From: Ignavibacteriales bacterium
GTDB taxonomy: Bacteria > Bacteroidota > Ignavibacteria > UBA10030 > UBA8401
Direction of reading: 5' to 3'
DNA length: 64,000 nucleotides
Assembly: GCA_026390635.1 (NCBI GenBank)
Contig: JAPLFO010000148.1
Span: 60,080-124,079, forward strand
Positions 1,911 to 61,455 of the stretch are shown one piece after another. Below the pieces are notes generated by a model. That model saw only the letters and a program-made list of their open reading frames with translations. It made no database searches and was not told where the DNA came from. The stretch's first letter is position 1. Each line of letters begins with the position of its first letter. Both the position numbers and the translations under genes were made by a program.

Positions 1911-3242
1911 ATGGCTACGAATAAACCAATCAACACCATCATCGTCGGCGCGGCAGGAAGAGATTTTCATAATTTCAACATGGTGTATCGCGATAATCCT
2001 CTTTTCAACGTTGTCGCATTCACCGCAGCACAGATTCCCAATATTGCCGGCCGGAAATATCCTGCGGCACTTGCCGGCAAATTGTACCCGAAGGGAATTC
2101 CCATCCACGAAGAAAAAGACCTGGAAGAACTGATTGCCGAATACGCTGTCGCTGAAGTAGTATTCTCCTACAGCGATGTCACCTACCGGCATGTGATGAG
2201 CCTCGGTTCGCGTGTGACGGCCGCGGGTGCTCATTTCAAGATGCTGAGCGCCCGCAGTACAATGATCAAGAGCAAAAAGCCGATTATTTCCATTTGCGCA
2301 GTTCGTACCGGCAGCGGCAAGAGCCAGACGGGACGCAAAGTTGCCAAGATTCTGCACGAACTCGGTTACAAAGTGGCTGCCGTACGTCATCCGATGCCGT
2401 ATGGCGATCTGGAAAAGCAAAAAGTGCAGCGCTTTGGATCTGTAGCGGATCTCGCAAAACACAAATGCACCATTGAAGAAATGGAAGAGTACGAACCGCA
2501 TATCGAGAGCGGCACAATTATTTATTCGGGCGTTGACTATGCCGCAATCCTGGAACAGGCGGAAAAAGAAGCCGATATTATCATTTGGGACGGCGGCAAC
2601 AACGACATGCCGTTCTACGCTCCGGACCTCCACATCGTCGTCGCCGATCCGCTACGGGCCGGCAATGAACTCAACTACTATCCCAGCGAAGCAAATCTCC
2701 GCATGGCAGACGTGGTGGTGATTAACAAAATCGATTCCGCGATACCGGAAAATGTGACGAAATTGCGCGAAAACATCCGCTCCGTCAACAAACACGCACG
2801 CATCGTTGATGCCGCGTCCCCGCTGGCCGTAGAGAACAGCGAGCGCATTGCCGGAAAGCGTGTGCTTGTCATTGAAGATGGACCGACGCTGACGCACGGC
2901 GAAATGAAATTCGGAGCCGGCACTGTGGCTGCGCTGAAATTCGGAGCTGCGGAGCTCATAGATCCGCGTCCGTATGCGACCGGAGAGATCAAGAAGACGT
3001 TCGAAACCTATCCCGGCATCGGCGTTCTGCTGCCGGCCATGGGATACAGCGACAAGCAGATCAAAGATCTGGAATCGACCATCAACAAAGTTCCGTGTGA
3101 CGCCGTCATCATCGGCACACCGATCGATCTGAACAGAATCGTCAAGATCAAAAAGCCCACGTTCCGTGTGACGTATGAACTGCAGGAAATCGGAGAACCG
3201 GGACTTGAGACGATCCTGAAAGGCTTCCTGAAGAATCGGTAA
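1911..3242 (+). CDS. Predicted P-loop NTPase of the COG2403 / cyclic 2,3-diphosphoglycerate-synthetase-like family
   Basis: 444-aa product MATNKPINTIIVGAAGRDFHNFN... with a nucleotide-binding loop ICAVRTGSGKSQTGRK. The gaggag SD lies 8 nt before the ATG at 1911. The family name comes from memory and is uncertain. Confidence 0.45.
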   Translation: MATNKPINTIIVGAAGRDFHNFNMVYRDNPLFNVVAFTAAQIPNIAGRKYPAALAGKLYPKGIPIHEEKDLEELIAEYAVAEVVFSYSDVTYRHVMSLGSRVTAAGAHFKMLSARSTMIKSKKPIISICAVRTGSGKSQTGRKVAKILHELGYKVAAVRHPMPYGDLEKQKVQRFGSVADLAKHKCTIEEMEEYEPHIESGTIIYSGVDYAAILEQAEKEADIIIWDGGNNDMPFYAPDLHIVVADPLRAGNELNYYPSEANLRMADVVVINKIDSAIPENVTKLRENIRSVNKHARIVDAASPLAVENSERIAGKRVLVIEDGPTLTHGEMKFGAGTVAALKFGAAELIDPRPYATGEIKKTFETYPGIGVLLPAMGYSDKQIKDLESTINKVPCDAVIIGTPIDLNRIVKIKKPTFRVTYELQEIGEPGLETILKGFLKNR

Positions 3243-31519: not shown

Positions 31520-31683
31520 GAGACTTCTGAAAAACTCCTGGATGCCGGTCATTCTGAGCGCTTCGGCTCCGCTCAGCACAAGCTCCGCGAAGAATCCATT
31601 AGTTGTTTTCAGATCACAATGATGGATTCTTCGTCGCTGCGCGACTCAGAATGACAATCCGCGATGGTTTTTCAGACGTCTCG
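31520..31683 (+). repeat. MITE-like palindromic element, family A, copy 1 (about 165 bp, 17-bp terminal inverted repeats CGAGACKTCTGAAAAAC)
   Basis: About 98% identical to the reverse complement of 41424-41588. Internal hairpins include ctgagcgcttcggctccgctcag. It starts 3 nt after the stop codon of the preceding gene. Confidence 0.8.
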
Positions 31684-39930: not shown

Positions 39931-40078
39931 TGTGAAAACTCGCGACGAAGTCATCGCGAGGAGCGAAGCGACGTGGCGATCTTTTTTTTGAATAGAAGCC
40001 AGAGTGTGCCGTTGTACGGCATCCTCTGGACTTCGGCAGAAAACGCCTCGCAATGACTAACTCCATAGTTTTCACACA
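39931..40078. repeat. MITE-like palindromic element, family B, copy 1
   Basis: Terminal inverted repeats gtgtgaaaact...agttttcacacac. The internal core tgtgccgttgtacggcatcc..tggacttcg.ca.a.aacg.ctcgcaatgac, plus gtcatcgcgagg, is shared with 61319-61455. Confidence 0.7.
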
Positions 40079-40131: not shown

Positions 40132-41379
40132 CTACACCCACCCCCGCAACTTGCATGCTTCCGCAACGCGCGCAACACCAACCACCATTGCGGCCAGTCG
40201 CGGATGGACGCGTTTCTGAACCATCGCCTGCTGTACGGAGTGGTACGCCTTCGTCAGTTTCTGATCGAGACGTTTGTGCACCAGATCTTCGTCCCAGAAG
40301 TACGAGTAACTGTCCTGCACCATTTCAAAATACGACACCGTGACGCCTCCCGCGCTTGCAAGAATATCGGGGATGACGTGCACTCCTTTGCGGAAAAGGA
40401 TCAGATCAGCCTCGGGCGTCGTGGGGCCATTGGCGAGCTCACAGACGATTTTCGCCTTGATTTTCTCGGCATTCAACTCCGAAATCGCATTTTCAAGCGC
40501 CGCCGGGTATAACACGTCCACGTCGAGCTCCAGAATTTCTTCGTGCGAAATCTGCTGCGCGCCCGGAAAACTGCGCACCGTTCCGGTTGTCAGTTTGTGT
40601 GTCACGAGATCTTTCGGATTGAATCCGTCCGGATTGTAAATGGCACCGCGCGAATCGCTGACGGCCACCAGTTTTCCCCCACCGAGAATTTCTTCATGCA
40701 GCAGCGCGGCGCGCTGTCCGGCGTTGCCGAATCCCTGAATGGCATACCGCCCGTGCGGATTCACATCGAGAATCTTACACGCCTCGCGCACGGTCGTCAC
40801 ACCGCCGCGGGCGGTCGCATCGCGCCGTCCTTCCGTACCGCCGATCTGCAACGGCTTGTCCGTAAACACACCGGGTTGATGCCGATGGACGATGGTTTCA
40901 TATTCGTCCATCATCCATGCCATTGTCTGTGGATTGGTATAGACGTCCGGCGCAGGAATGTCTTTTTCCGGGCCGATGTATTCTGCTACGGCGCGGATGT
41001 AGGCACGCGAGAGATTTTCCAGCTCGCGTTCAGAAAGTTTTTTGGGATCGCAGACAACGCCCCCCTTGCCGCCGCCAAGAGGAAGATCCACCACCGCAGT
41101 CTTCCACGTCATCCAGCTCGCAAGAGCGCGGATGATGTCCACGGTCTCGTCCGGATGAAAGCGGATACCGCCTTTGGCCGGGCCGCGCGCGAAATTGTAC
41201 TGGATCCGGTAGGCGTGAAAAATCTTCACCGATCCGTCGTCCATTTTTACCGGAAGCGTGCAGGAAAATTCCCGCTGCGGATAGCTCAGTAACTCGACCG
41301 TTGCGCGATCAAGGTTCAGCAGCTTTGCCGCTTCCGCAACCTGCTTTTGAGCGACATGAAAAGAATTATACGATTCCAT
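40132..41379 (-). CDS. Glu/Leu/Phe/Val dehydrogenase family, 415-aa glutamate dehydrogenase type
   Basis: ...[43 protein letters not shown]...; the NAD(P)-binding GFGNAG motif. Confidence 0.85.
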
Positions 41380-41423
41380 AGTCTTTGCCTTTTTGATCGC
41401 TGATTACTCAGATTTATGGATTG

Positions 41424-41588
41424 AGACGTCTGAAAAACCATCGCGGATTGTCATTCTGAGTCGCGCAGCGACGGAGAATCCATCGTTGTGATCTGAAAAC
41501 AACAAATGGATTCTTCGCGGAGCTTGTGCTGAGCGGAGCCGAAGCGCTCAGAATGACCGGCATCCAGGAGTTTTTCAGAAGTCTCGGA
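41424..41588 (-). repeat. MITE-like palindromic element, family A, copy 2 (inverted relative to copy 1)
   Basis: Its reverse complement matches 31520-31683 with 3-4 mismatches over about 165 bp. Confidence 0.8.
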
Positions 41589-41687
41589 TTACACAGCGTA
41601 TTGGTATTTATGTCTTCATCTTCGTAATCTGCGATCCATTTATTTGGCTGCAGTGCTGTTCCATTAAGTTGAATTATGAATTCTCTG

Positions 41688-41783
41688 CCCGCTTCGCCGA
41701 GCTCAGCGAGGCGAGTGCTCTCTTCTTTTTCTCTGTGCGTCACCCCGAGCGAGTGAAGCGAGTCGAGGGGCTCTGTGGCATAT
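41688..41783 (-). repeat. Intergenic repeat, family C, copy 1 (about 95 bp)
   Basis: Its reverse complement is about 95% identical to 46596-46688 (gccacagagcccctcgactcgcttc.ctcg.tcggggtgacgcacagagaaa...agagagcactcgcctcgctgagctcggcgaagcgg). Confidence 0.75.
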
Positions 41784-41805
41784 CTCTTACTTTCCATTTT
41801 ACGAT

Positions 41806-42018
41806 TCACTTGTTTTCTTGCGGTGGTAGTTGGTCGTCATGCGTGGACCGTCCCGGCGTTTCATCGCGTACATCCAGAATGATACGGTACCAGCAGTTCT
41901 TGCACATCAGCGCTTTGTCGACACTCAGCAGCACCTGTTCCCAGCGGCTCAGCTTATGCCCGCAGTGCGGACATGCTTCGTGCGATTTCTGCTTGTGAGG
42001 GGATTCACCGTTGCTCAC
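41806..42018 (-). CDS. Small zinc-ribbon protein (70 aa), speculative
   Basis: CPHCGHKLSRWEQVLLSVDKALMCKNC gives CxxC...CxxC. It overlaps the 3' end of the disrupted PPDK_N gene by 14 nt. Length and overlap make it weak. Confidence 0.3.
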   Translation of the reverse strand: MSNGESPHKQKSHEACPHCGHKLSRWEQVLLSVDKALMCKNCWYRIILDVRDETPGRSTHDDQLPPQENK

Positions 42019-45003
42019 GGGGCACCTCCGGTTTTAAAATAATGCCTTTGTTCTGGTGACCATTGATTTTAATGGTTACGGGCGATGTGAATCGAAGGTG
42101 TTTTGTAAATTCTTTCTTCTCCAGTGGAGTCTGCTGGAGCAGCCAGTCCCAATCCACCGATCCTTGATGGCTGTGCGTGTTGACACTGAAATAGCCGATC
42201 ATGAACGACGTGATGTTTTGGAAAAAATGCGACCCCTGCGAGGGTGTCACAGACATTTCCTTGAACGCTGTCTCGACAATTGCCCGCGCTCCCGAAATCT
42301 GATCCCATGCGACAGGAATACCAAGCCAGGGGTCCAATGTCCCCCAGCGCCCGACACCGATGAGCAGGTAGGGACGACTCTCTGCGATCATCTGCGAATT
42401 GAACGATGCAACCTCTGCGGCGACATCCAGGCTGCGCGACCGGTCGAAGAGATGATAATCGACGAAAACGATATCATAAATATCCTGTACCACTCCATTG
42501 CCAAGCACCTGAGCGCTTTGGCACAAGAGCTTCTCCGGGTCGTACGTTTCGACATTGAGTTCTTCCAGTTCGCGGTTGATGACAAGCGGACGCATCTGCA
42601 GAAGCCCAAACTCTCTCGGCTTTCCCGGCGGCACGGTCATGTTCACTGCAAATTCGATTTCGACCGGCGTTCCCATGCCCCACGTTCCCATGTCCAGCAG
42701 CAGTTCCAGGATCTGCGGCAGCGGGTAGAAGTTGTAGGACTTCGCCACGCCGGAGAAATCGGGATAAAAATGGCGTCGTTTTCCGGATCGTACGTGGAGC
42801 CGACATAGCGGAGCGGGCCGTCCCGCTCGGCGACGTCCAGTCCGTGTTTCATGACGAGCAGATCGTGTGTCTCCGTTCCAAAATCCGAGCTCGCATCCAG
42901 CTGGAGCGCATAAAAATCACGCTGTGTATTGTTGAGCGTCTCTTCGACAGAATGAAATTGAATAACATCCGTCGGATAGCGTGGACAGAACCGGACTGTC
43001 GCACCCCCATCCACCACCATCTTTCCGAGTCCGAGCGCTGCGGAGACGACACCGTCCGACGATGTCTGCGGCGGAAGCGGGTAGAAGTTGTAGGACTTCG
43101 CCACGCCGGAGAAATCGGGATAAAAGCGCTGCTCGTGTTTGTTGCCTACCATCTTCTGAATAATCACCGCCATTTTTTCTTCTTCCAGACGGTAGGACGT
43201 CACCTTGATGTAGTCCTTCGCCGCCTGGTAGAACGTCGACGCATAGACGCGCTTGATGCTGTTGAGCAGATCGTTGAGCCGGACAAGCGGATTGGCATGA
43301 TTGTTTGGAAGCATATACGTTTCATAGACACCCGCGAACGGATGATATTGCGAATCCTCCAGCAGACTGGATGAACGAACGGCCAGCGGTGTGTGAATAA
43401 TATCCAGGAATGCGGCAAGTTCGCCGAGAATATCTTCGGGAAATTTCACCGCCTCCAAAAAGCGCTTCGTAATTTCCTTGTTGTCGCGGCAGTTGAGTGC
43501 AAAGTTGCGAAGATTATTGTCATCCACGAATTGATCGAACACGTCTGTTCCGATGACCACGGCCGGAGGCACAGAAATCTGCACATCATCGAAACGGTCG
43601 CGGACATTATAGTCGTTGATAAGCGTGCTGACAAATCCGAGGCCGCGCGCCTTACCGCCCAGCGACCCGCCGCCGATGCGCGCGAAGCTTGTCTCCGGAT
43701 CGAACGATTCCTTGGAGAAATCGGCGATAATCCCGCGTTGGCGTATATTGCGGTAGTTGTGGAGCGAATTCACCAGATCGTTCCGCAGCGCCTCGACGGA
43801 CGGATAGTCCTCCACCCGGCGCGGACGCAATTGATGGGCCAGCCAGAATTCCGTACGGGCTTTCAGCCAGTTCGAGAAGTGATTCCGTTTTGCGTGATAT
43901 TTGACGCTCTCTTCCGGCACGATCTTCAGCTGTTCTTCGAGGGTTCGCAGGTCGGTCGCCCGGCCGACTTCCATACCGTTGTCCGTACGGAAGACAAAAT
44001 CGCCGAAACTAAAATAATGGCCCATGAACTGGCGCAGTTCGTTCAGCAGCAGCGGGGAATCTTTCAGCACGAACGCTGCACCGGTATCGTGAGCGAGCTG
44101 TTCGTTCGACGCCATATTCGAGAGCAGAAGAATCGGTACATCGGGCTGATCCTCTTTGATGGCGCGAGCGAGCGCGATGCCGGCCTGCGGATCGGCCGTT
44201 CCCATCCGCGGAAAATCGATATCGGAAATAACACCGAGCATAAATTCGCTGTACTGTTCGTAGCACGACCATGCCTCTTCATACGTCGAAGTCAGCAGAA
44301 TCTTCGGCCGGGCGCGCATCCGCAGAAACTTGTGCGTCAGGTTGATGCCTTCGGAAATCAGCCGCTGCGACTGTTTGAGCATTTCGGTATAGATAATCGG
44401 AAGAATGGAGGAATAGTATTTGACGCTGTCCTCCACGACGATAACCGTCTGCACGCCGACCATACGGGCGTCGTGCTCTACGTTCATGCGATCTTCCAGA
44501 TATTTGATGATGGCAATGATGATGCGGAAATCGCCCTGCCAGACGAACACTTTGTCGAATACCGACGCGGTGTTGCTCACCAGCAGGTATTGCAACTCCC
44601 GATTGTCGTGGGCCAGCAGCACAACCGGAATATTGATGCCCGACTCTTTTACCATGCGCGCAAACGTCACGGCATGCATGTCGTCGATGTGCAGCGTCGT
44701 GATGATGAGATCAAAGCGCCGCTCTTCCTTGGCCAGAGCGATGGCTTCGTGTCCGCTGGACACGCGGGTGAGTTCTGGAGAATGGCTTAGATTGAATCCC
44801 TGATACTCATTCCGGATTAATTCATACAGTCGGCCGTCTTCTTCAAAGAGGTAGAGATCATACAGACTGGAAACAAGAAGCACATCGCGGATGCGCAATC
44901 GCATCAGGTTCTGAAATCCTTGGAACCGATTGCCGTATCCGTGCTCGACCAGAAGGGTATCGAGCGCATTGACAACGTCGTCATTTTTCTTGCGCATGGG
45001 CAT
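42005..45003 (-). pseudogene. Disrupted paralog of the REC-REC-PPDK_N (PEP-utilising ATP-grasp) protein: ORFs 42643-45003 and 42005-42748 together span the full-length homolog
   Basis: The 786-aa ORF aligns to residues about 1-760 of the intact 1004-aa paralog. It then leaves frame at a second copy of a 49-bp exact repeat (gcgggtagaagttgtaggacttcgccacgccggagaaatcgggataaaa; copy A 43078-43126, copy B 42722-42770). The 247-aa ORF resumes the homology (AKSYNFYPLPQILELLLDMGTWGMGTPVEIEF...) in another frame. About 20 aa are missing relative to the paralog. Confidence 0.6.
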
Positions 45004-45140
45004 AGTACAAAAGACCTGACAGGTGTTTATAGCAAGCGTCCGACACCTCCTTGATTCGCAATGGCTGCTGATGCTATCAATATTTCAAAATAGAAGCCAG
45101 CGTTCTACGGAAGAGATGTCGGACACTTTGCGACACGCTA

Positions 45141-46547
<1,407 letters not shown>

Positions 46548-46595
46548 TCAGAGCAAATCTGACCGCTCTGATTAAATCATGAAAGAAAGACTTTG

Positions 46596-46688
46596 CCACA
46601 GAGCCCCTCGACTCGCTTCGCTCGTTCGGGGTGACGCACAGAGAAAGAGAAGAGAGCACTCGCCTCGCTGAGCTCGGCGAAGCGGACG
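46596..46688 (+). repeat. Intergenic repeat, family C, copy 2
   Basis: See 41688-41783. CACAGAG/CTCTGTG heptamers follow immediately at 46703-46742. Confidence 0.75.
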
Positions 46689-46795
46689 GAGAATGCAGAT
46701 CAGCCTCTGTGTTCTCGTCTTTTGTCCTCTGTGTTCTCCGTGACTATCTTTTTATGCTAAGCAATTACAATGCTGCACACTATATATCACTCTGC

Positions 46796-49700
46796 TTATT
46801 GTGGCTTGAGAATGACGCCTTTGTTCTTATGCCCGTTGATTTTCGCCGTCAGGGGCCTATCAAACCGGAGATGGCGAGTATATTCCAGCTCCTCGACGGC
46901 CGGCTGCTCCTGCAGCCATTCCCAGTCGATGAAGCCGAGGTTCAAAAAAGAATTCACCGTAAAATAGCCGACGCGGAACGACGTGATATTCTGGAAGAAG
47001 TGCGATCCCTGCGACGGCGTCACATTGAAATCCTTGAATCCTGATTCCACAATCACGCTGGCGCCTGAAATCTGATCCCACGACACCGGGATACCGAGCC
47101 AATGATCGAGACTTCCCCACCGGCCGACACCGATCAGAATGTACGGACGCTTCTCCGTCAGCAGTTTTGCATTCATTGCACTGACCTCGAGCGCCACCTC
47201 TTTCGAACGCAGCCGCTCGAACTTCTGAATATCGACACATACAATGTCGTAGAGATCCTTGATGACCCCGTTCCCGAGCACCTGGTCGCTCTGGCAAATG
47301 CTGCTGCCTTTCGATGCCTCGTCCACATCGAGCTCTTCCAGTTCATGACTCAACACCAGAGGACGCATCTGCAGCATGGCAAATTCGTTCGGTTTCTCCG
47401 GTGGCATGCCCATCGATGCGGCGAATTCGATCTCCACCGGAGTGCCCATTCCCCACGTTCCCATATCCAGCATCATTTGCAGAATTTCCGGCAGAGGAAA
47501 AATCTTGTGTTTGAGAATCGGCGAAAACGTCACGACGCGTTTCCCGGCACGGGAGATGCCGTCGTACACCGAGTCGTTCTCCGCCGAGTACGTGGAACCA
47601 ACATAGTACAGTGTTTGATCCTCTTCCGCCTTGCTCAGATCGTACTTGCGTACAAATTTATCGGGCGTATGGTGCCCCTCCTTCAAGATGCCTTCTGAAA
47701 GATCCAACGCATAGAAATCCTGTTGTGCATTTTTGATCGTATCGTTCGTGGAGAAAAACTGCATCAGATGGCGGGGATACTTTGGACAGAATCTGACAGT
47801 ATTCCCTCCATCGACCACCGTTTTTCCCAATCCAAGAGCCACAAGTACAATACCATCCTCGGATGATTGCGGAGGAACCGGATAGAAGTTATAGGACTTT
47901 GCCACTCCGGCAAAATCGGGATAGAATCGTCCGTGATGCTCGGCTCCGACCATCCGCTGGATAATCACCGCCATTTTTTCTTCTTCCAGGCGGTACGCCG
48001 TGGCCTTCATGTAGTCTTTTGCAGCTTTGAGAAACGTCGAGGCATACACCAGTCGGACGCTTTCCAGGAGTTCCTGCAGGCGCACCGCATGATCCGGATT
48101 GTTGTTCGGGATCATGAAGGTTTCGTAAACACCCGCAAAGGGCTGGAATTGCGAATCCTCCAGCAGGCTGGACGACCGGACCGCCAGAGGTTCGTGAATG
48201 ATCGCCAGAAATTCCGACAAGCGGCTTTTTATTTCCGCCGGGAATCTGTCCGCTTCCAAAAAGCGTTTCCGGATTTCATCGTCGCCGGCGGTGCTCAGCG
48301 AAAGATTCTCCAGCCGGTTTTCTTCAATGAAGCGATCGAAGATGTCCGTCGCAATGACAACCGCGGACGGGACAGACACTTCCACATCCGGAAAGCGGTT
48401 ACGGACACTGTAGGTGTTGATCAGCGTATTGATGAAGCCAAGTCCGCGGGCTTTTCCGCCCAGCGATCCGCCGCCGATGCGTGCAAAGCTGTTGCGCGGA
48501 TCGAATGTTTCTTTTGAAAACTCGGTGATGGTTCCGCGCTGGCGCACTTCACGGTATTTCTGCAGGGACGTAATCAGCTCGTTGCGCAGATCGGCAGTCG
48601 ACGCAAAATCGGTCACCTTGTGCGGCCGCAAACGGTGGGCCAGCCAGAATTCCGTACGGGCTTTGAGCCAGTTTGAGAAATGATTTCTCTCCGCATGATA
48701 CACGATGGACTCATCCGGCACGCGGCGGAGTTGATCTTCCAGGGCACCGAGATTACTCGCGCGGCCGACTTCCTGGCCATCCGCTGTTCTGAATGTGAAA
48801 TCGCCGAAGCCGAAGTGGCTTTTCATGAACTCGCGCAACTCATGGAGCAGGCGCGGCGAACCTTTCTGCAGGAATGAAGCGCCTATCTCCTTCGCAACAC
48901 CGGCAAACTCGGCGTTGCTGGATTGCAGCAGGATGGGAATATCTTCATGCTGTTTTTTCACATTGCGCGCGAAGGTGATTCCCGCTTCCGGATCTTTCAC
49001 GCCGTTCCGCTTGAAATTGACGTCCGAAATAATCCCGAGAATAAATTCCTGATACTTCTCATAGTACGACCATGCTTCCTCGTACGTCGTGCAGAGTAGG
49101 ATTTTCGGACGGGCTTTCATCCGCAGCATCTTGTGCGTGATGTTGATACCTTCCTGAATCAGGCGCTGCGATTGATTGAGAATTTCAGTATAGATGAGGG
49201 GAAGATAGGAGGAATAGAACTTCACATCGTCTTCAACCAGGATGATCGACTGGACGCCGACGGTCATGGTATCGTTTTCGACGTTCAGCCGGTCTTCCAC
49301 GCATTTGATGATGCCGATCAGGAGGCGGAAGTCTCCCTGCCAGATAAAGATCCTGTCAAAAATGGTTGTGTCATAGTTCGTGACAATGTCTTTCCGCTCG
49401 CGGTTGTCGTATGCAAGCAGCACGATCGGAATCTGCAATCCCACCTGCCGCACCATCTGTGCGAACTTGATGACGTGCATATCTTCGATATGCAACGTGG
49501 TAATGATGAGATCAAAAGTATTCTCGACGGTGGCCAGCTCGATCGCTTCAGCGCCGCTGGTGGCATGGGTGATTTCCGGAGGGTGGCTCAGATTCAGCAC
49601 CTGCGATTCCTGGCGGATCAGTTCATAGAGCCGTCCGTCTTCCTCAAACAGGTAGTCGTCGTAGAGACTGGAGACAAGAAGCACGTCGCGGATTTTGTGC

Positions 49701-49810
49701 CGCATCAATTTCTGGAATGTCTTGATGCGGCTTCCGTAAAGGTCTTCTATCGTAAGATGATCTATTTTACTCATGATCGGCCGGACGATACCGTTCAGAC
49801 TGCTCGGCAA
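46796..49810 (-). CDS. Large protein with two N-terminal receiver-like (REC/pseudo-receiver) domains and a C-terminal PEP-utilising-enzyme nucleotide-binding ATP-grasp domain (PPDK_N)
   Basis: 1004 aa. N-terminus ...IRDVLLVSSLYDDYLFEEDG... and ...SIILVEDDVKFYSSYLPLIYTEI... (CheY-like folds). C-terminal half ...IGGGSLGGKARGLGF...AVRSSSLLEDSQFQPFAGVYETFMIPN...GTPVEIEFA...MLQMRPLV matches the pyruvate phosphate dikinase / PEP synthase PEP-pyruvate-binding domain. No phosphohistidine or PEP-utilizer C-domain is evident. Confidence 0.7.
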   Translation of the reverse strand: MPSSLNGIVRPIMSKIDHLTIEDLYGSRIKTFQKLMRHKIRDVLLVSSLYDDYLFEEDGRLYELIRQESQVLNLSHPPEITHATSGAEAIELATVENTFDLIITTLHIEDMHVIKFAQMVRQVGLQIPIVLLAYDNRERKDIVTNYDTTIFDRIFIWQGDFRLLIGIIKCVEDRLNVENDTMTVGVQSIILVEDDVKFYSSYLPLIYTEILNQSQRLIQEGINITHKMLRMKARPKILLCTTYEEAWSYYEKYQEFILGIISDVNFKRNGVKDPEAGITFARNVKKQHEDIPILLQSSNAEFAGVAKEIGASFLQKGSPRLLHELREFMKSHFGFGDFTFRTADGQEVGRASNLGALEDQLRRVPDESIVYHAERNHFSNWLKARTEFWLAHRLRPHKVTDFASTADLRNELITSLQKYREVRQRGTITEFSKETFDPRNSFARIGGGSLGGKARGLGFINTLINTYSVRNRFPDVEVSVPSAVVIATDIFDRFIEENRLENLSLSTAGDDEIRKRFLEADRFPAEIKSRLSEFLAIIHEPLAVRSSSLLEDSQFQPFAGVYETFMIPNNNPDHAVRLQELLESVRLVYASTFLKAAKDYMKATAYRLEEEKMAVIIQRMVGAEHHGRFYPDFAGVAKSYNFYPVPPQSSEDGIVLVALGLGKTVVDGGNTVRFCPKYPRHLMQFFSTNDTIKNAQQDFYALDLSEGILKEGHHTPDKFVRKYDLSKAEEDQTLYYVGSTYSAENDSVYDGISRAGKRVVTFSPILKHKIFPLPEILQMMLDMGTWGMGTPVEIEFAASMGMPPEKPNEFAMLQMRPLVLSHELEELDVDEASKGSSICQSDQVLGNGVIKDLYDIVCVDIQKFERLRSKEVALEVSAMNAKLLTEKRPYILIGVGRWGSLDHWLGIPVSWDQISGASVIVESGFKDFNVTPSQGSHFFQNITSFRVGYFTVNSFLNLGFIDWEWLQEQPAVEELEYTRHLRFDRPLTAKINGHKNKGVILKPQ

Positions 49811-49884
49811 TGCCGTCTGGAATCATAGAATGTGCGGGGATGAGTTATCCCGCTTGTCCCGCACATTCTATAACATTCCTTGCG

Positions 49885-51225
49885 CTACACCAACCCCTGA
49901 TCCATCATCGCATCTGCAACCTTCAGGAATCCGCCGATATTCGCACCGTTCACATAGTTGCCCGGAGTTCCGTACTTTTCCGCGTTTTCAAGACAGGTCT
50001 TATGAATATTTATCATGATCTGATGCAGCCGCTGATCGACTTCTTCTTTCGGCCAGGGAAGCCGCATGCTGTTCTGGCTCATTTCCAATCCGGAGGTGGC
50101 AACACCGCCGGCGTTCGATGCCTTTCCCGGCGAGTAGAGCACTCCGGCTTCATGGAGTACTTTCACGCCGGAAAGTGTCGTCGGCATGTTTGCGCCTTCA
50201 CACACACAGTAGCAGCCGTTTTTCAATAGTTCTTTCGCATCGCTATCGTCCAACTCATTCTGCGTCGCACACGGCAGCGCGACGTCCACTTTCACTCCCC
50301 ACGGTCGTTTGCCGGGATGGAACTCAACCTTGAAGTGATCTGCATAATCCTTCACGCTATCCCGTGCGCTGGCACGCATTTGCAGCATGTAGTCGATCTT
50401 TTCCCCTTTGATGCCTTCTTTGTCAAACACAAAACCGTCGGGACCTGACAGCGTCACCACTTTTGCACCGAGTTGTGTCGCCTTCTGCACGGCGCCCCAT
50501 GCAACATTGCCGAATCCGGATACGGCAACAGCCTTGTCGTCGAACGTTTGGCCGCGGGTCTTCAACATCTCCTGTGCAAAATAGACGACACCGAATCCTG
50601 TCGCTTCCGGACGAATCAGCGAGCCGCCCCAATTCAATCCTTTTCCGGTGAGGACGCCGGAGAACTCTTTGGTCAATCGCTTATATTGTCCAAACAGATA
50701 ACCGATTTCGCGGCCGCCGACCCCGATGTCGCCGGCGGGGACGTCGATGTCGGGTCCGACATGACGGTACAATTCCGTCATAAAGCTCTGGCAGAACCGC
50801 ATTACTTCATGATCGCTCTTTCCTTTGGGATCGAAATCGGAGCCGCCCTTACCGCCGCCCATCGGCAGCGACGTGAGGCTGTTTTTAAAGACTTGTTCGA
50901 ACGCAAGAAATTTTAGTATACCCAGCGTGACTGAAGGATGGAAGCGAAGTCCGCCCTTGTACGGTCCGATGGCACTGTTCATTTGAATACGGAAGCCGCG
51001 ATTGATCTGGAACTCTCCCTGATCATCCATCCACGGTACACGAAACATGATGACGCGTTCCGGCTCGACCATGCGTTCGAGTATTTTTGCCGAGCGATAT
51101 TCAGGATGGCGTGCAATTACCAATTCCAGGGATCCGACAACCTCTTCGACTGCTTGATGAAATTCGGGTTCGTTTGAATTTTTTGCTTTGACTTGTGCTA
51201 CTACATTTTGAATATATTCAGACAT
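49885..51225 (-). CDS. gdhA: NADP-specific glutamate dehydrogenase (GdhA type), second copy
   Basis: 446 aa, about 70% identical to the 45141-46502 product, with the same GGGKGG and nucleotide-binding motifs. Confidence 0.9.
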   Translation of the reverse strand: MSEYIQNVVAQVKAKNSNEPEFHQAVEEVVGSLELVIARHPEYRSAKILERMVEPERVIMFRVPWMDDQGEFQINRGFRIQMNSAIGPYKGGLRFHPSVTLGILKFLAFEQVFKNSLTSLPMGGGKGGSDFDPKGKSDHEVMRFCQSFMTELYRHVGPDIDVPAGDIGVGGREIGYLFGQYKRLTKEFSGVLTGKGLNWGGSLIRPEATGFGVVYFAQEMLKTRGQTFDDKAVAVSGFGNVAWGAVQKATQLGAKVVTLSGPDGFVFDKEGIKGEKIDYMLQMRASARDSVKDYADHFKVEFHPGKRPWGVKVDVALPCATQNELDDSDAKELLKNGCYCVCEGANMPTTLSGVKVLHEAGVLYSPGKASNAGGVATSGLEMSQNSMRLPWPKEEVDQRLHQIMINIHKTCLENAEKYGTPGNYVNGANIGGFLKVADAMMDQGLV

Positions 51226-61318: not shown

Positions 61319-61455
61319 GTCATTGCGAGGGAGCCCCGCCATAGGCGGGGTAAACTCCGCGACGAAGCAATCTTGTCCCCAAAAGCAGGAAAGAAGGATT
61401 GTGCCGTTGTACGGCATCCATTGGACTTCGCCAAAGAACGGCTCGCAATGACGCT
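61319..61455. repeat. MITE-like palindromic element, family B, copy 2
   Basis: Terminal inverted repeats gtcattgcgagg...gctcgcaatgac. The core tgtgccgttgtacggcatccattggacttcgccaaagaacgg is shared with 39931-40078. Confidence 0.7.

Follow-up and report, generated by a model that had tools for sequence, protein, structure and literature searches.

RecA-independent slipped-strand mispairing between short direct repeats yields either a simple deletion or a tandem duplication, with ends set by the repeats. Template switching of the FoSTeS and MMBIR kind, reportedly set out in the papers of Lee 2007 and Hastings 2009, leaves a more complex footprint, in which a nearby identical tract is inserted while sequence is lost at the site. 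In these events, as in short-range template switches, microhomology of 2-6 nt is seen at both joins and the donor lies within a few hundred bases; short-range switches are further associated with sequence that can form secondary structure where the strand left its template. The classical prokaryotic case is Ripley's quasi-palindrome model, in which copying of an inverted template yields a perfect inverted repeat (PMC7954356). MMEJ with templated insertions, which requires a double-strand break, has been reviewed (PMC12426944), and a bacterial group II intron-like RT has been described in MMEJ (bioRxiv 10.1101/2022.03.14.484287). Ectopic gene conversion between paralogs, in turn, copies a tract non-reciprocally to another place. 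Here, we compare these mutation types with a split gene in an uncultivated member of the Ignavibacteria.

The window, a 64,000-nt stretch of an Ignavibacteriales metagenome-assembled genome (MAG; GCA_026390635.1), carries two receiver/PPDK_N paralogs, the intact paralog A and the split paralog B, interleaved with three glutamate dehydrogenase (GDH) genes (Table 1). This GDH / PPDK_N / GDH / PPDK_N / GDH five-gene array is widespread in Ignavibacteria MAGs: of 80 loci, 60 have a GDH gene directly upstream of a PPDK_N gene and 45 contain two PPDK_N copies. The closest species-representative genomes, all Ignavibacteria/Bacteroidota MAGs, reach 77-78% identity at best, and an Rfam search of the whole window returned no match. 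Within paralog B, we found an exact direct repeat of 50 nt at 42720-42769 and 43076-43125, which lengthens to 55 nt if one mismatch is allowed. The original prediction had reported a 49-mer occurring twice, at 42722-42770 and 43078-43126; the exact repeat stood, while both positions proved one base too high (the two matches in the window fall at 42721-42769 and 43077-43125) and the full extent is one nucleotide greater. Two matches to this 49-mer were obtained in 0 of 100 dinucleotide-preserving shuffles, and the repeat is real, beyond a chance match. In a self-comparison, it was the only long exact repeat within the coding sequence of this part of the window; the few other repeats detected are all either intergenic or conserved stretches between paralogs.

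Table 1. Features of the split receiver/PPDK_N gene, its neighbors and its junctions (window coordinates)
Feature	Coordinates	Strand	Remarks
Paralog B, receiver/PPDK_N	42005-45003	minus	Split into two ORFs
N-terminal ORF of B, 786 aa	42643..45003	minus	NCBI MCX6137958.1, named 'histidine kinase'
C-terminal ORF of B, 247 aa	42005..42748	minus	NCBI MCX6137957.1, 'hypothetical protein' NTV54_10730
Paralog A, intact, 1004 aa	46796..49810	minus	Receiver domains and PPDK_N ATP-grasp
GDH	45141..46502	minus	Directly upstream of B
GDH	49885-51225	minus	
GDH	40132-41379	minus	
70-aa CxxC...CxxC ORF	41806..42018	minus	Overlaps stop of B by 14 nt
Donor copy of repeat	43076..43125	minus	In frame in paralog B; encodes FYPDFSGVAKSYNFYPL
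Second, derived copy of repeat	42720..42769	minus	Missing from intact allele
Unambiguously inserted 42 nt	42726..42767	minus	TTATCCCGATTTC...CTTCTA; replaces 67 ancestral nt
Downstream join	42720..42725	minus	6-nt microhomology CCCGCT, common to donor and recipient
Upstream join and frameshift site	42766..42770	minus	T5 run (A5 on plus strand)
Ancestral junction			GAC GCC ATT TAT GAA GGT ... AGA ATA TTC CCG CTG CCG CAG
Window junction			GAC GCC ATT T + TTATCCCGATTTC...CTTCTA + CCCGCTGCCGCAG
Donor sequence			CAG CGC TTT TAT CCC GAT ... TTC TAC CCG CTT CCG CCG CAG
Two novel junction sequences of window allele			GACGCCATTTTTATCCCG and TTCTACCCGCTGCCGCAGATC
Marker sequences of the two junctions			GACGCCATTTTTATCCCGATTTC and CTTCTACCCGCTGCCGCAGATCC

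The two copies differ in their relation to the reading frame. The motif encoded by the donor copy is a strand-loop motif of the ATP-grasp (PPDK_N) domain. The closest solved structures, the ATP-grasp domains of Listeria PDB 5HV1 and 5FBS (deposited as 'phosphoenolpyruvate synthase' and, we assume, rifampin phosphotransferase), give a weak match (E ~1e-4) that ends at this motif. The second copy shares the frame of the downstream part of paralog B but not that of the upstream part, and it reads FIPISPAWRS... in the 786-aa ORF and (FYPDFSG)VAKSYNFYP in the frame of the 247-aa ORF. Residues 1-745 of the former are native, and its last 41 codons (42646-42768) are an out-of-frame read-through to a stop; the native frame of the latter extends upstream as far as 42769. 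The view that the repeat splits the second PPDK_N paralog was confirmed, as these two ORFs stand where the intact allele encodes 1007 aa.

That intact allele came from sequencing runs other than the source of the window, through the ortholog comparison that had been proposed for reconstructing the ancestral junction. Use of the frame-corrected B protein as a homolog query retrieved only intact ~1000-aa proteins. The 90% cluster of the best match included a protein (P0124) with 97.8% identity to frame-corrected B, encoded on a 4143-nt contig (hereafter L004) from the Logan assembly of SRR25046533. L004 aligns to window positions 45814-41697 with three SNPs outside the junction. An exact look-up with the small ORF (70 aa) overlapping the stop of B then returned seven contigs, of which six were examined, one per run (SRR25046533, ERR15302170, ERR15302175, ERR15302191, ERR15302197, and ERR15302198; short-read Logan contigs of 2.5-4.2 kb). 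All six carry an identical ancestral junction, a single copy of the 50-mer, and the canonical ...ENDAIYEGLSRQGARVVSFAPVLRNRIFPLPQILELL... segment, and they differ from the window by 1-3 SNPs with zero indels outside the junction. Their gene product is 1007 aa in length, or a partial 723 or 820 aa that still spans the junction site. The canonical segment is also present in paralog A and in orthologs at 90% and 72-78% amino acid identity. Because near-identical contigs from other runs hold the intact 1007-aa gene, the window allele is best read as derived and the gene as broken.

No assembly other than the source MAG (MCX6137957/8, on a contig of 223,256 bp) was found to carry the derived allele, and neither novel junction was observed independently a second time. 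A DNA pattern with the gap N{42,67}, which fits either allele, gave 0 matches in genome_contigs and 0 in metagenome_contigs, and the gene-position index, which does not extend to the source MAG, held no exact match to the 786-aa ORF, GDH2, or the 247-aa ORF. Among the six contigs, none was shorter than 2 kb and began in the repeat, as would be expected from a k=31 assembly of the derived allele.

Comparison of the two alleles resolved the event to the base. Sixty-seven ancestral nucleotides (L004 3048-3114) were exchanged for 42 (window 42726-42767), a net change of -25 nt that shifts the frame; the loss of about 20 codons given in the original prediction holds as a loss and takes this exact form. 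The replaced 67 nt show no resemblance to the 42-nt donor tract. The second copy is identical at 50 of 50 nt to 43076-43125, which lies in the same orientation 356 nt upstream. At the downstream join, a microhomology first seen in the protein (YPLP / FPLP) is borne out in the DNA by the shared CCCGCT, beyond which one mismatch is followed by four matching bases. The mismatch corresponds to window position 43075, which is T in the window and L004 and G in the ERR contigs and an 80%-identical ortholog (L001); on this ancestral G haplotype, the downstream microhomology would reach 11 nt. At the upstream join, the recipient reads ATTTAT, the donor CTTTTAT, and the product ATTTTTAT. Pairing here used at most 2-3 T and was 2 nt out of register with the common TTTAT, which is why the product is out of frame. 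The frameshift, previously placed after the second copy, lies instead at the upstream (5') edge of that copy, within the T5 run. The best local microhomology at this join, TTTAT, would give an in-frame product, and a template-switch model has to allow for pairing that was misaligned by 2 nt in the T-run.

The identity of the donor bears directly on homologous gene conversion, by which paralog A or another paralogous copy would have overwritten part of B. Two paralogs of ~62% amino acid identity, 4.8 kb apart in direct orientation, would offer a setting for such an exchange, but the inserted tract matches the upstream motif of B itself at 100% identity and the copy in paralog A at only 82%. The insertion also occupies a non-homologous position, where the 67 replaced nucleotides are dissimilar to the tract, and conversion would not alter the length by -25 nt. 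Homologous gene conversion is refuted on the donor identities and the unrelated tracts. Two further candidates were rejected. A diversity-generating retroelement is at odds with copies that are 100% identical (no adenine-specific mismatches) and with the absence of the second copy from near-identical genomes, and slippage would yield a simple deletion or a tandem duplication.

We favor, with a probability of roughly 80%, a very recent, lineage-private, microhomology-mediated complex indel, that is, a real mutation that made B a pseudogene. As the route, we propose a double template switch, as in FoSTeS/MMBIR or short-range template switching. The nascent strand would have left its template at the ATTT run, in the loop of the region's only 9-bp hairpin, and re-primed on the upstream TTTTAT site via 2-3 nt of T-run homology. 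After some 45-50 nt had been copied from the upstream site, the strand would have returned to the original site through the CCCGCT microhomology.

The hairpin in question is a perfect 9-bp inverted repeat of the intact allele (AAACGACGC / GCGTCGTTT, L004 3034-3042 / 3075-3083) with a predicted free energy of -9.1 kcal/mol (DNA parameters). The upstream breakpoint (3047/3048) is situated in the hairpin loop, 5 nt from its start, and the 3' arm of the hairpin falls within the deleted tract. It is the sole perfect hairpin of at least 9 bp (loop up to 60 nt) in the 4143 nt of L004 and covers 1.2% of positions, an association that was noticed post hoc. A hairpin at the breakpoint is suggestive and fits stalling-induced template switching, as discussed in PMC7954356.

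Set against the described mutation types, the locus shows a tract identical to nearby sequence, an ancestral allele in which different sequence occupies the site, and short microhomologies flanking the tract on both sides. With short-range template switching and FoSTeS/MMBIR it shares the nearby donor, the insertion coupled to loss, and the extent of microhomology, and with short-range switching also the structure-forming sequence at the point of departure; the likeness is one of footprint. The quasi-palindrome model differs in the orientation of the copy, which is direct here and would call for one jump backward followed by one forward, using either the same template strand or the sister strand. 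Slipped-strand mispairing is likewise microhomology dependent, replication associated, and confined to one gene, but here a non-adjacent 42-nt tract replaces 67 unrelated nucleotides. MMEJ with templated insertions resembles the event in its filler DNA from a nearby site, flanking microhomology, and accompanying deletion, and break repair of the MMEJ type with templated filler would produce a footprint indistinguishable from that of the replicative model. Ectopic gene conversion has the non-reciprocal copying of a tract in common with this locus, from which it differs in that the tracts here are non-homologous, the donor is not a paralog, and the length is altered.

The segment removed in the event is conserved. 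The lost residues, (Y)EGLSRQGARVVSFAPVLRNRIF, are the counterpart of YDGISRAGKRVVTFSPILKHKIF in paralog A and make up a conserved beta-hairpin and a short helix, immediately ahead of the Mg-site strand PVEIEFA. Six residues of this segment (G751, R754, G756, R758, F762, and L766 in paralog A numbering) are invariant across 42 aligned homologs. The spacing from GSTY to DMG.WGMG is 44 aa in 89/89 full-length homologs with both anchors and 36 aa in frame-corrected B, and the donor motif occurred twice in 0 of 125 full-length homologs. An AlphaFold model of paralog A (mean pLDDT 72.5) places strands at 747-750 and 757-760 and a short helix at 763-767, with pLDDT values of 73-80, ahead of a helix at 773-788 and the PVEIEFA strand. 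The Pfam PPDK_N match ends at profile position 216/328 in B versus 317/328 in A. With the frame shifted by the net change of -25 nt, B is on this evidence a predicted pseudogene, reduced to a truncated product of 786 aa and an orphan ORF of 247 aa.

Two further readings concern the reading frame. In the first, a real event is combined with a wrong count of the T-run: a run of three or six T would be in frame, and a run of five is out of frame. A true T6 or T3 would leave an in-frame variant of 999 or 998 aa, respectively, in which an 18-residue duplicated motif replaces 26 native residues. The addition of one T does restore a continuous 999-aa frame, and an in-register crossover at TTTAT would give T3. 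However, no homopolymer or other indel difference was found against 5.5 kb of independent contigs, and an in-frame product would still be without the six invariant residues and have the 44-aa spacing broken, and would very probably be inactive. We give this reading little credence. In the second, the split is functional, as a programmed -1 frameshift at A_TTT_TTA or as a deliberate two-subunit arrangement. A -1 shift within the T-run does reach the downstream frame, yet the T5 run was created by mutation, as the intact allele in near-identical DNA shows, and the zero frame is without a canonical X_XXY_YYZ heptamer. All 125 of the 125 full-length homologs are single polypeptides, and the conserved segment is missing in any frame; a functional split is scarcely conceivable.

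Selection and age are consistent with recent loss of a working gene. Relative to the 80%-identical ortholog L001, the dN/dS of B is 0.023 in the N-terminal part and 0.036 in the C-terminal part, values that point to strong purifying selection and to a constrained, functional gene until the event. Relative to L004, B differs by two synonymous changes and a single E/K substitution, at which the window has the ancestral E; this places that change in the other lineage. Since these are the only differences, the event appears very recent, with no decay accumulated afterward. Because the gene pair is conserved across Ignavibacteria, loss of one copy is probably mildly deleterious, which makes a low-frequency variant or an artifact somewhat likelier than a fixed change.

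An artifactual origin of the derived allele has to be weighed as well. Chimeric molecules from amplification or library preparation, or local reassembly or polishing, may have introduced it into the consensus of the MAG. In favor of this origin, only one assembly has the allele, the intact form is seen in all six other runs with nearly identical DNA, the affected gene is otherwise conserved under strong purifying selection, and in-vitro template switching likewise uses microhomology. An artifact would, however, need two novel junctions 42-50 nt apart, and a single PCR or MDA jump would run on into the donor's downstream sequence (TCCGCCGCAG...) rather than return to the recipient. Only 2-6 nt of sequence are common to the joins and the donor context, and a de Bruijn or overlap step could produce these joins only from reads that contain them. 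The remaining contig is indel-free against independent assemblies (5.5 kb of contigs compared), and the window is without N. No other split gene was found among the genes examined, and those checked cover their Pfam profiles fully. We consider an artifact unlikely and infer that the allele would exist in cells rather than only in the sequencing library. A graph misassembly (de Bruijn misjoin) appears very unlikely because the donor and recipient sites of the intact allele share at most 6 nt (11 on the G haplotype). The original prediction had left a choice between a pseudogene made by illegitimate recombination or gene conversion and a local misassembly; the broken, derived gene and its microhomology-mediated (illegitimate) origin are upheld, whereas homologous conversion falls away, given unrelated tracts and a donor within B itself.

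The type of mutation is already known and ordinary, and the locus reveals no new mechanism or system. What it offers is a microhomology-mediated templated indel, cleanly resolved to the base in an environmental bacterium, together with a candidate triggering hairpin. Tentatively, the window and the public contigs may form a natural before-and-after pair, less than 0.1% diverged, of a double template switch, hairpin-associated and in direct orientation, that would have taken place in an uncultivated wild population of Ignavibacteria. The analysis also illustrates that the original reads are not always needed to resolve a suspect junction, as an exact look-up of a small neighboring ORF recovered the intact allele from unrelated runs. 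For annotation, MCX6137958.1 and MCX6137957.1 are halves of one broken gene and should carry a pseudogene flag. Should the broken allele prove to be frequent in its sample, loss of one of the two deeply conserved, GDH-linked receiver/PPDK_N paralogs would be tolerated or even favored in that habitat.

Public annotation carries paralog B, the broken receiver/PPDK_N gene, as a "histidine kinase" (42643-45003) and a "hypothetical protein" (42005-42748), without a pseudogene flag. The former name looks like a misnomer because Pfam places only receiver and PPDK_N domains on the two halves, plus DUF5752 below threshold. At the polymorphic site beside the donor copy of the 50-nt repeat, the base is T in the window and in run SRR25046533; it is G in the five contigs from the ERR153021xx runs, and also in the 80% orthologue. 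The G form would lengthen the microhomology at the downstream join from 6 nt to 11 nt.

The small ORF at the end of paralog B has a zinc-ribbon-like motif and no match in Pfam. The same sequence is present in seven public contigs, and at the orthologue locus L001 a similar ORF of 71 aa overlaps the stop of a 90% orthologue of paralog B. After paralog A, the intact gene, no counterpart was noticed.

Features of the array and its surroundings (window positions)
Feature	Position	Strand	Description
Five-gene array	40132-51225	minus	GDH / receiver-PPDK_N / GDH / receiver-PPDK_N / GDH
Exact ~29-nt stretch	45892-45920 and 50615-50643		In two GDH genes
T/G polymorphism	43075		Synonymous; immediately after donor copy
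163-nt intergenic element	41423-41585 and 31520-31682		Two copies, inverted orientation, 98% identity
Second intergenic repeat, ~104-118 nt	41677-41794 and 46581-46697		91-94% identity
56-nt direct repeat	61397-61452 and 40002-40057		87.5% identity
70-aa ORF	41806-42018	minus	CPHC...CKNC; overlaps paralog B stop codon by 14 nt

Judged by its sequence, with terminal inverted repeats GAGACGTCTGAAAAAC ... GTTTTTCAGAAGTCTC enclosing the palindromes GTCATTCTGAG and CTCAGAATGAC, the 163-nt element looks like a MITE; neither copy has a match in Rfam. The second intergenic repeat, with oppositely oriented copies just 3' of each PPDK_N paralog, is where public k=31 contigs end, and those reaching furthest upstream stop near the first copy of the exact GDH stretch (at 45909 in L085, one of these public contigs). 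Outside that stretch, the two glutamate dehydrogenase (GDH) genes that contain it (45141-46502 and 49885-51225) are ~72% identical. One copy of the 56-nt repeat lies just downstream of GDH1.

The five-gene array is kept across many Ignavibacteria MAGs. Among the 80 loci compared (L005-L084), 60 have a PPDK_N gene with GDH directly upstream and 45 have at least two PPDK_N copies. Taken together, this conservation and adjacency suggest that glutamate dehydrogenase is functionally linked with uncharacterised ATP-grasp "response regulator" (PPDK_N) proteins.
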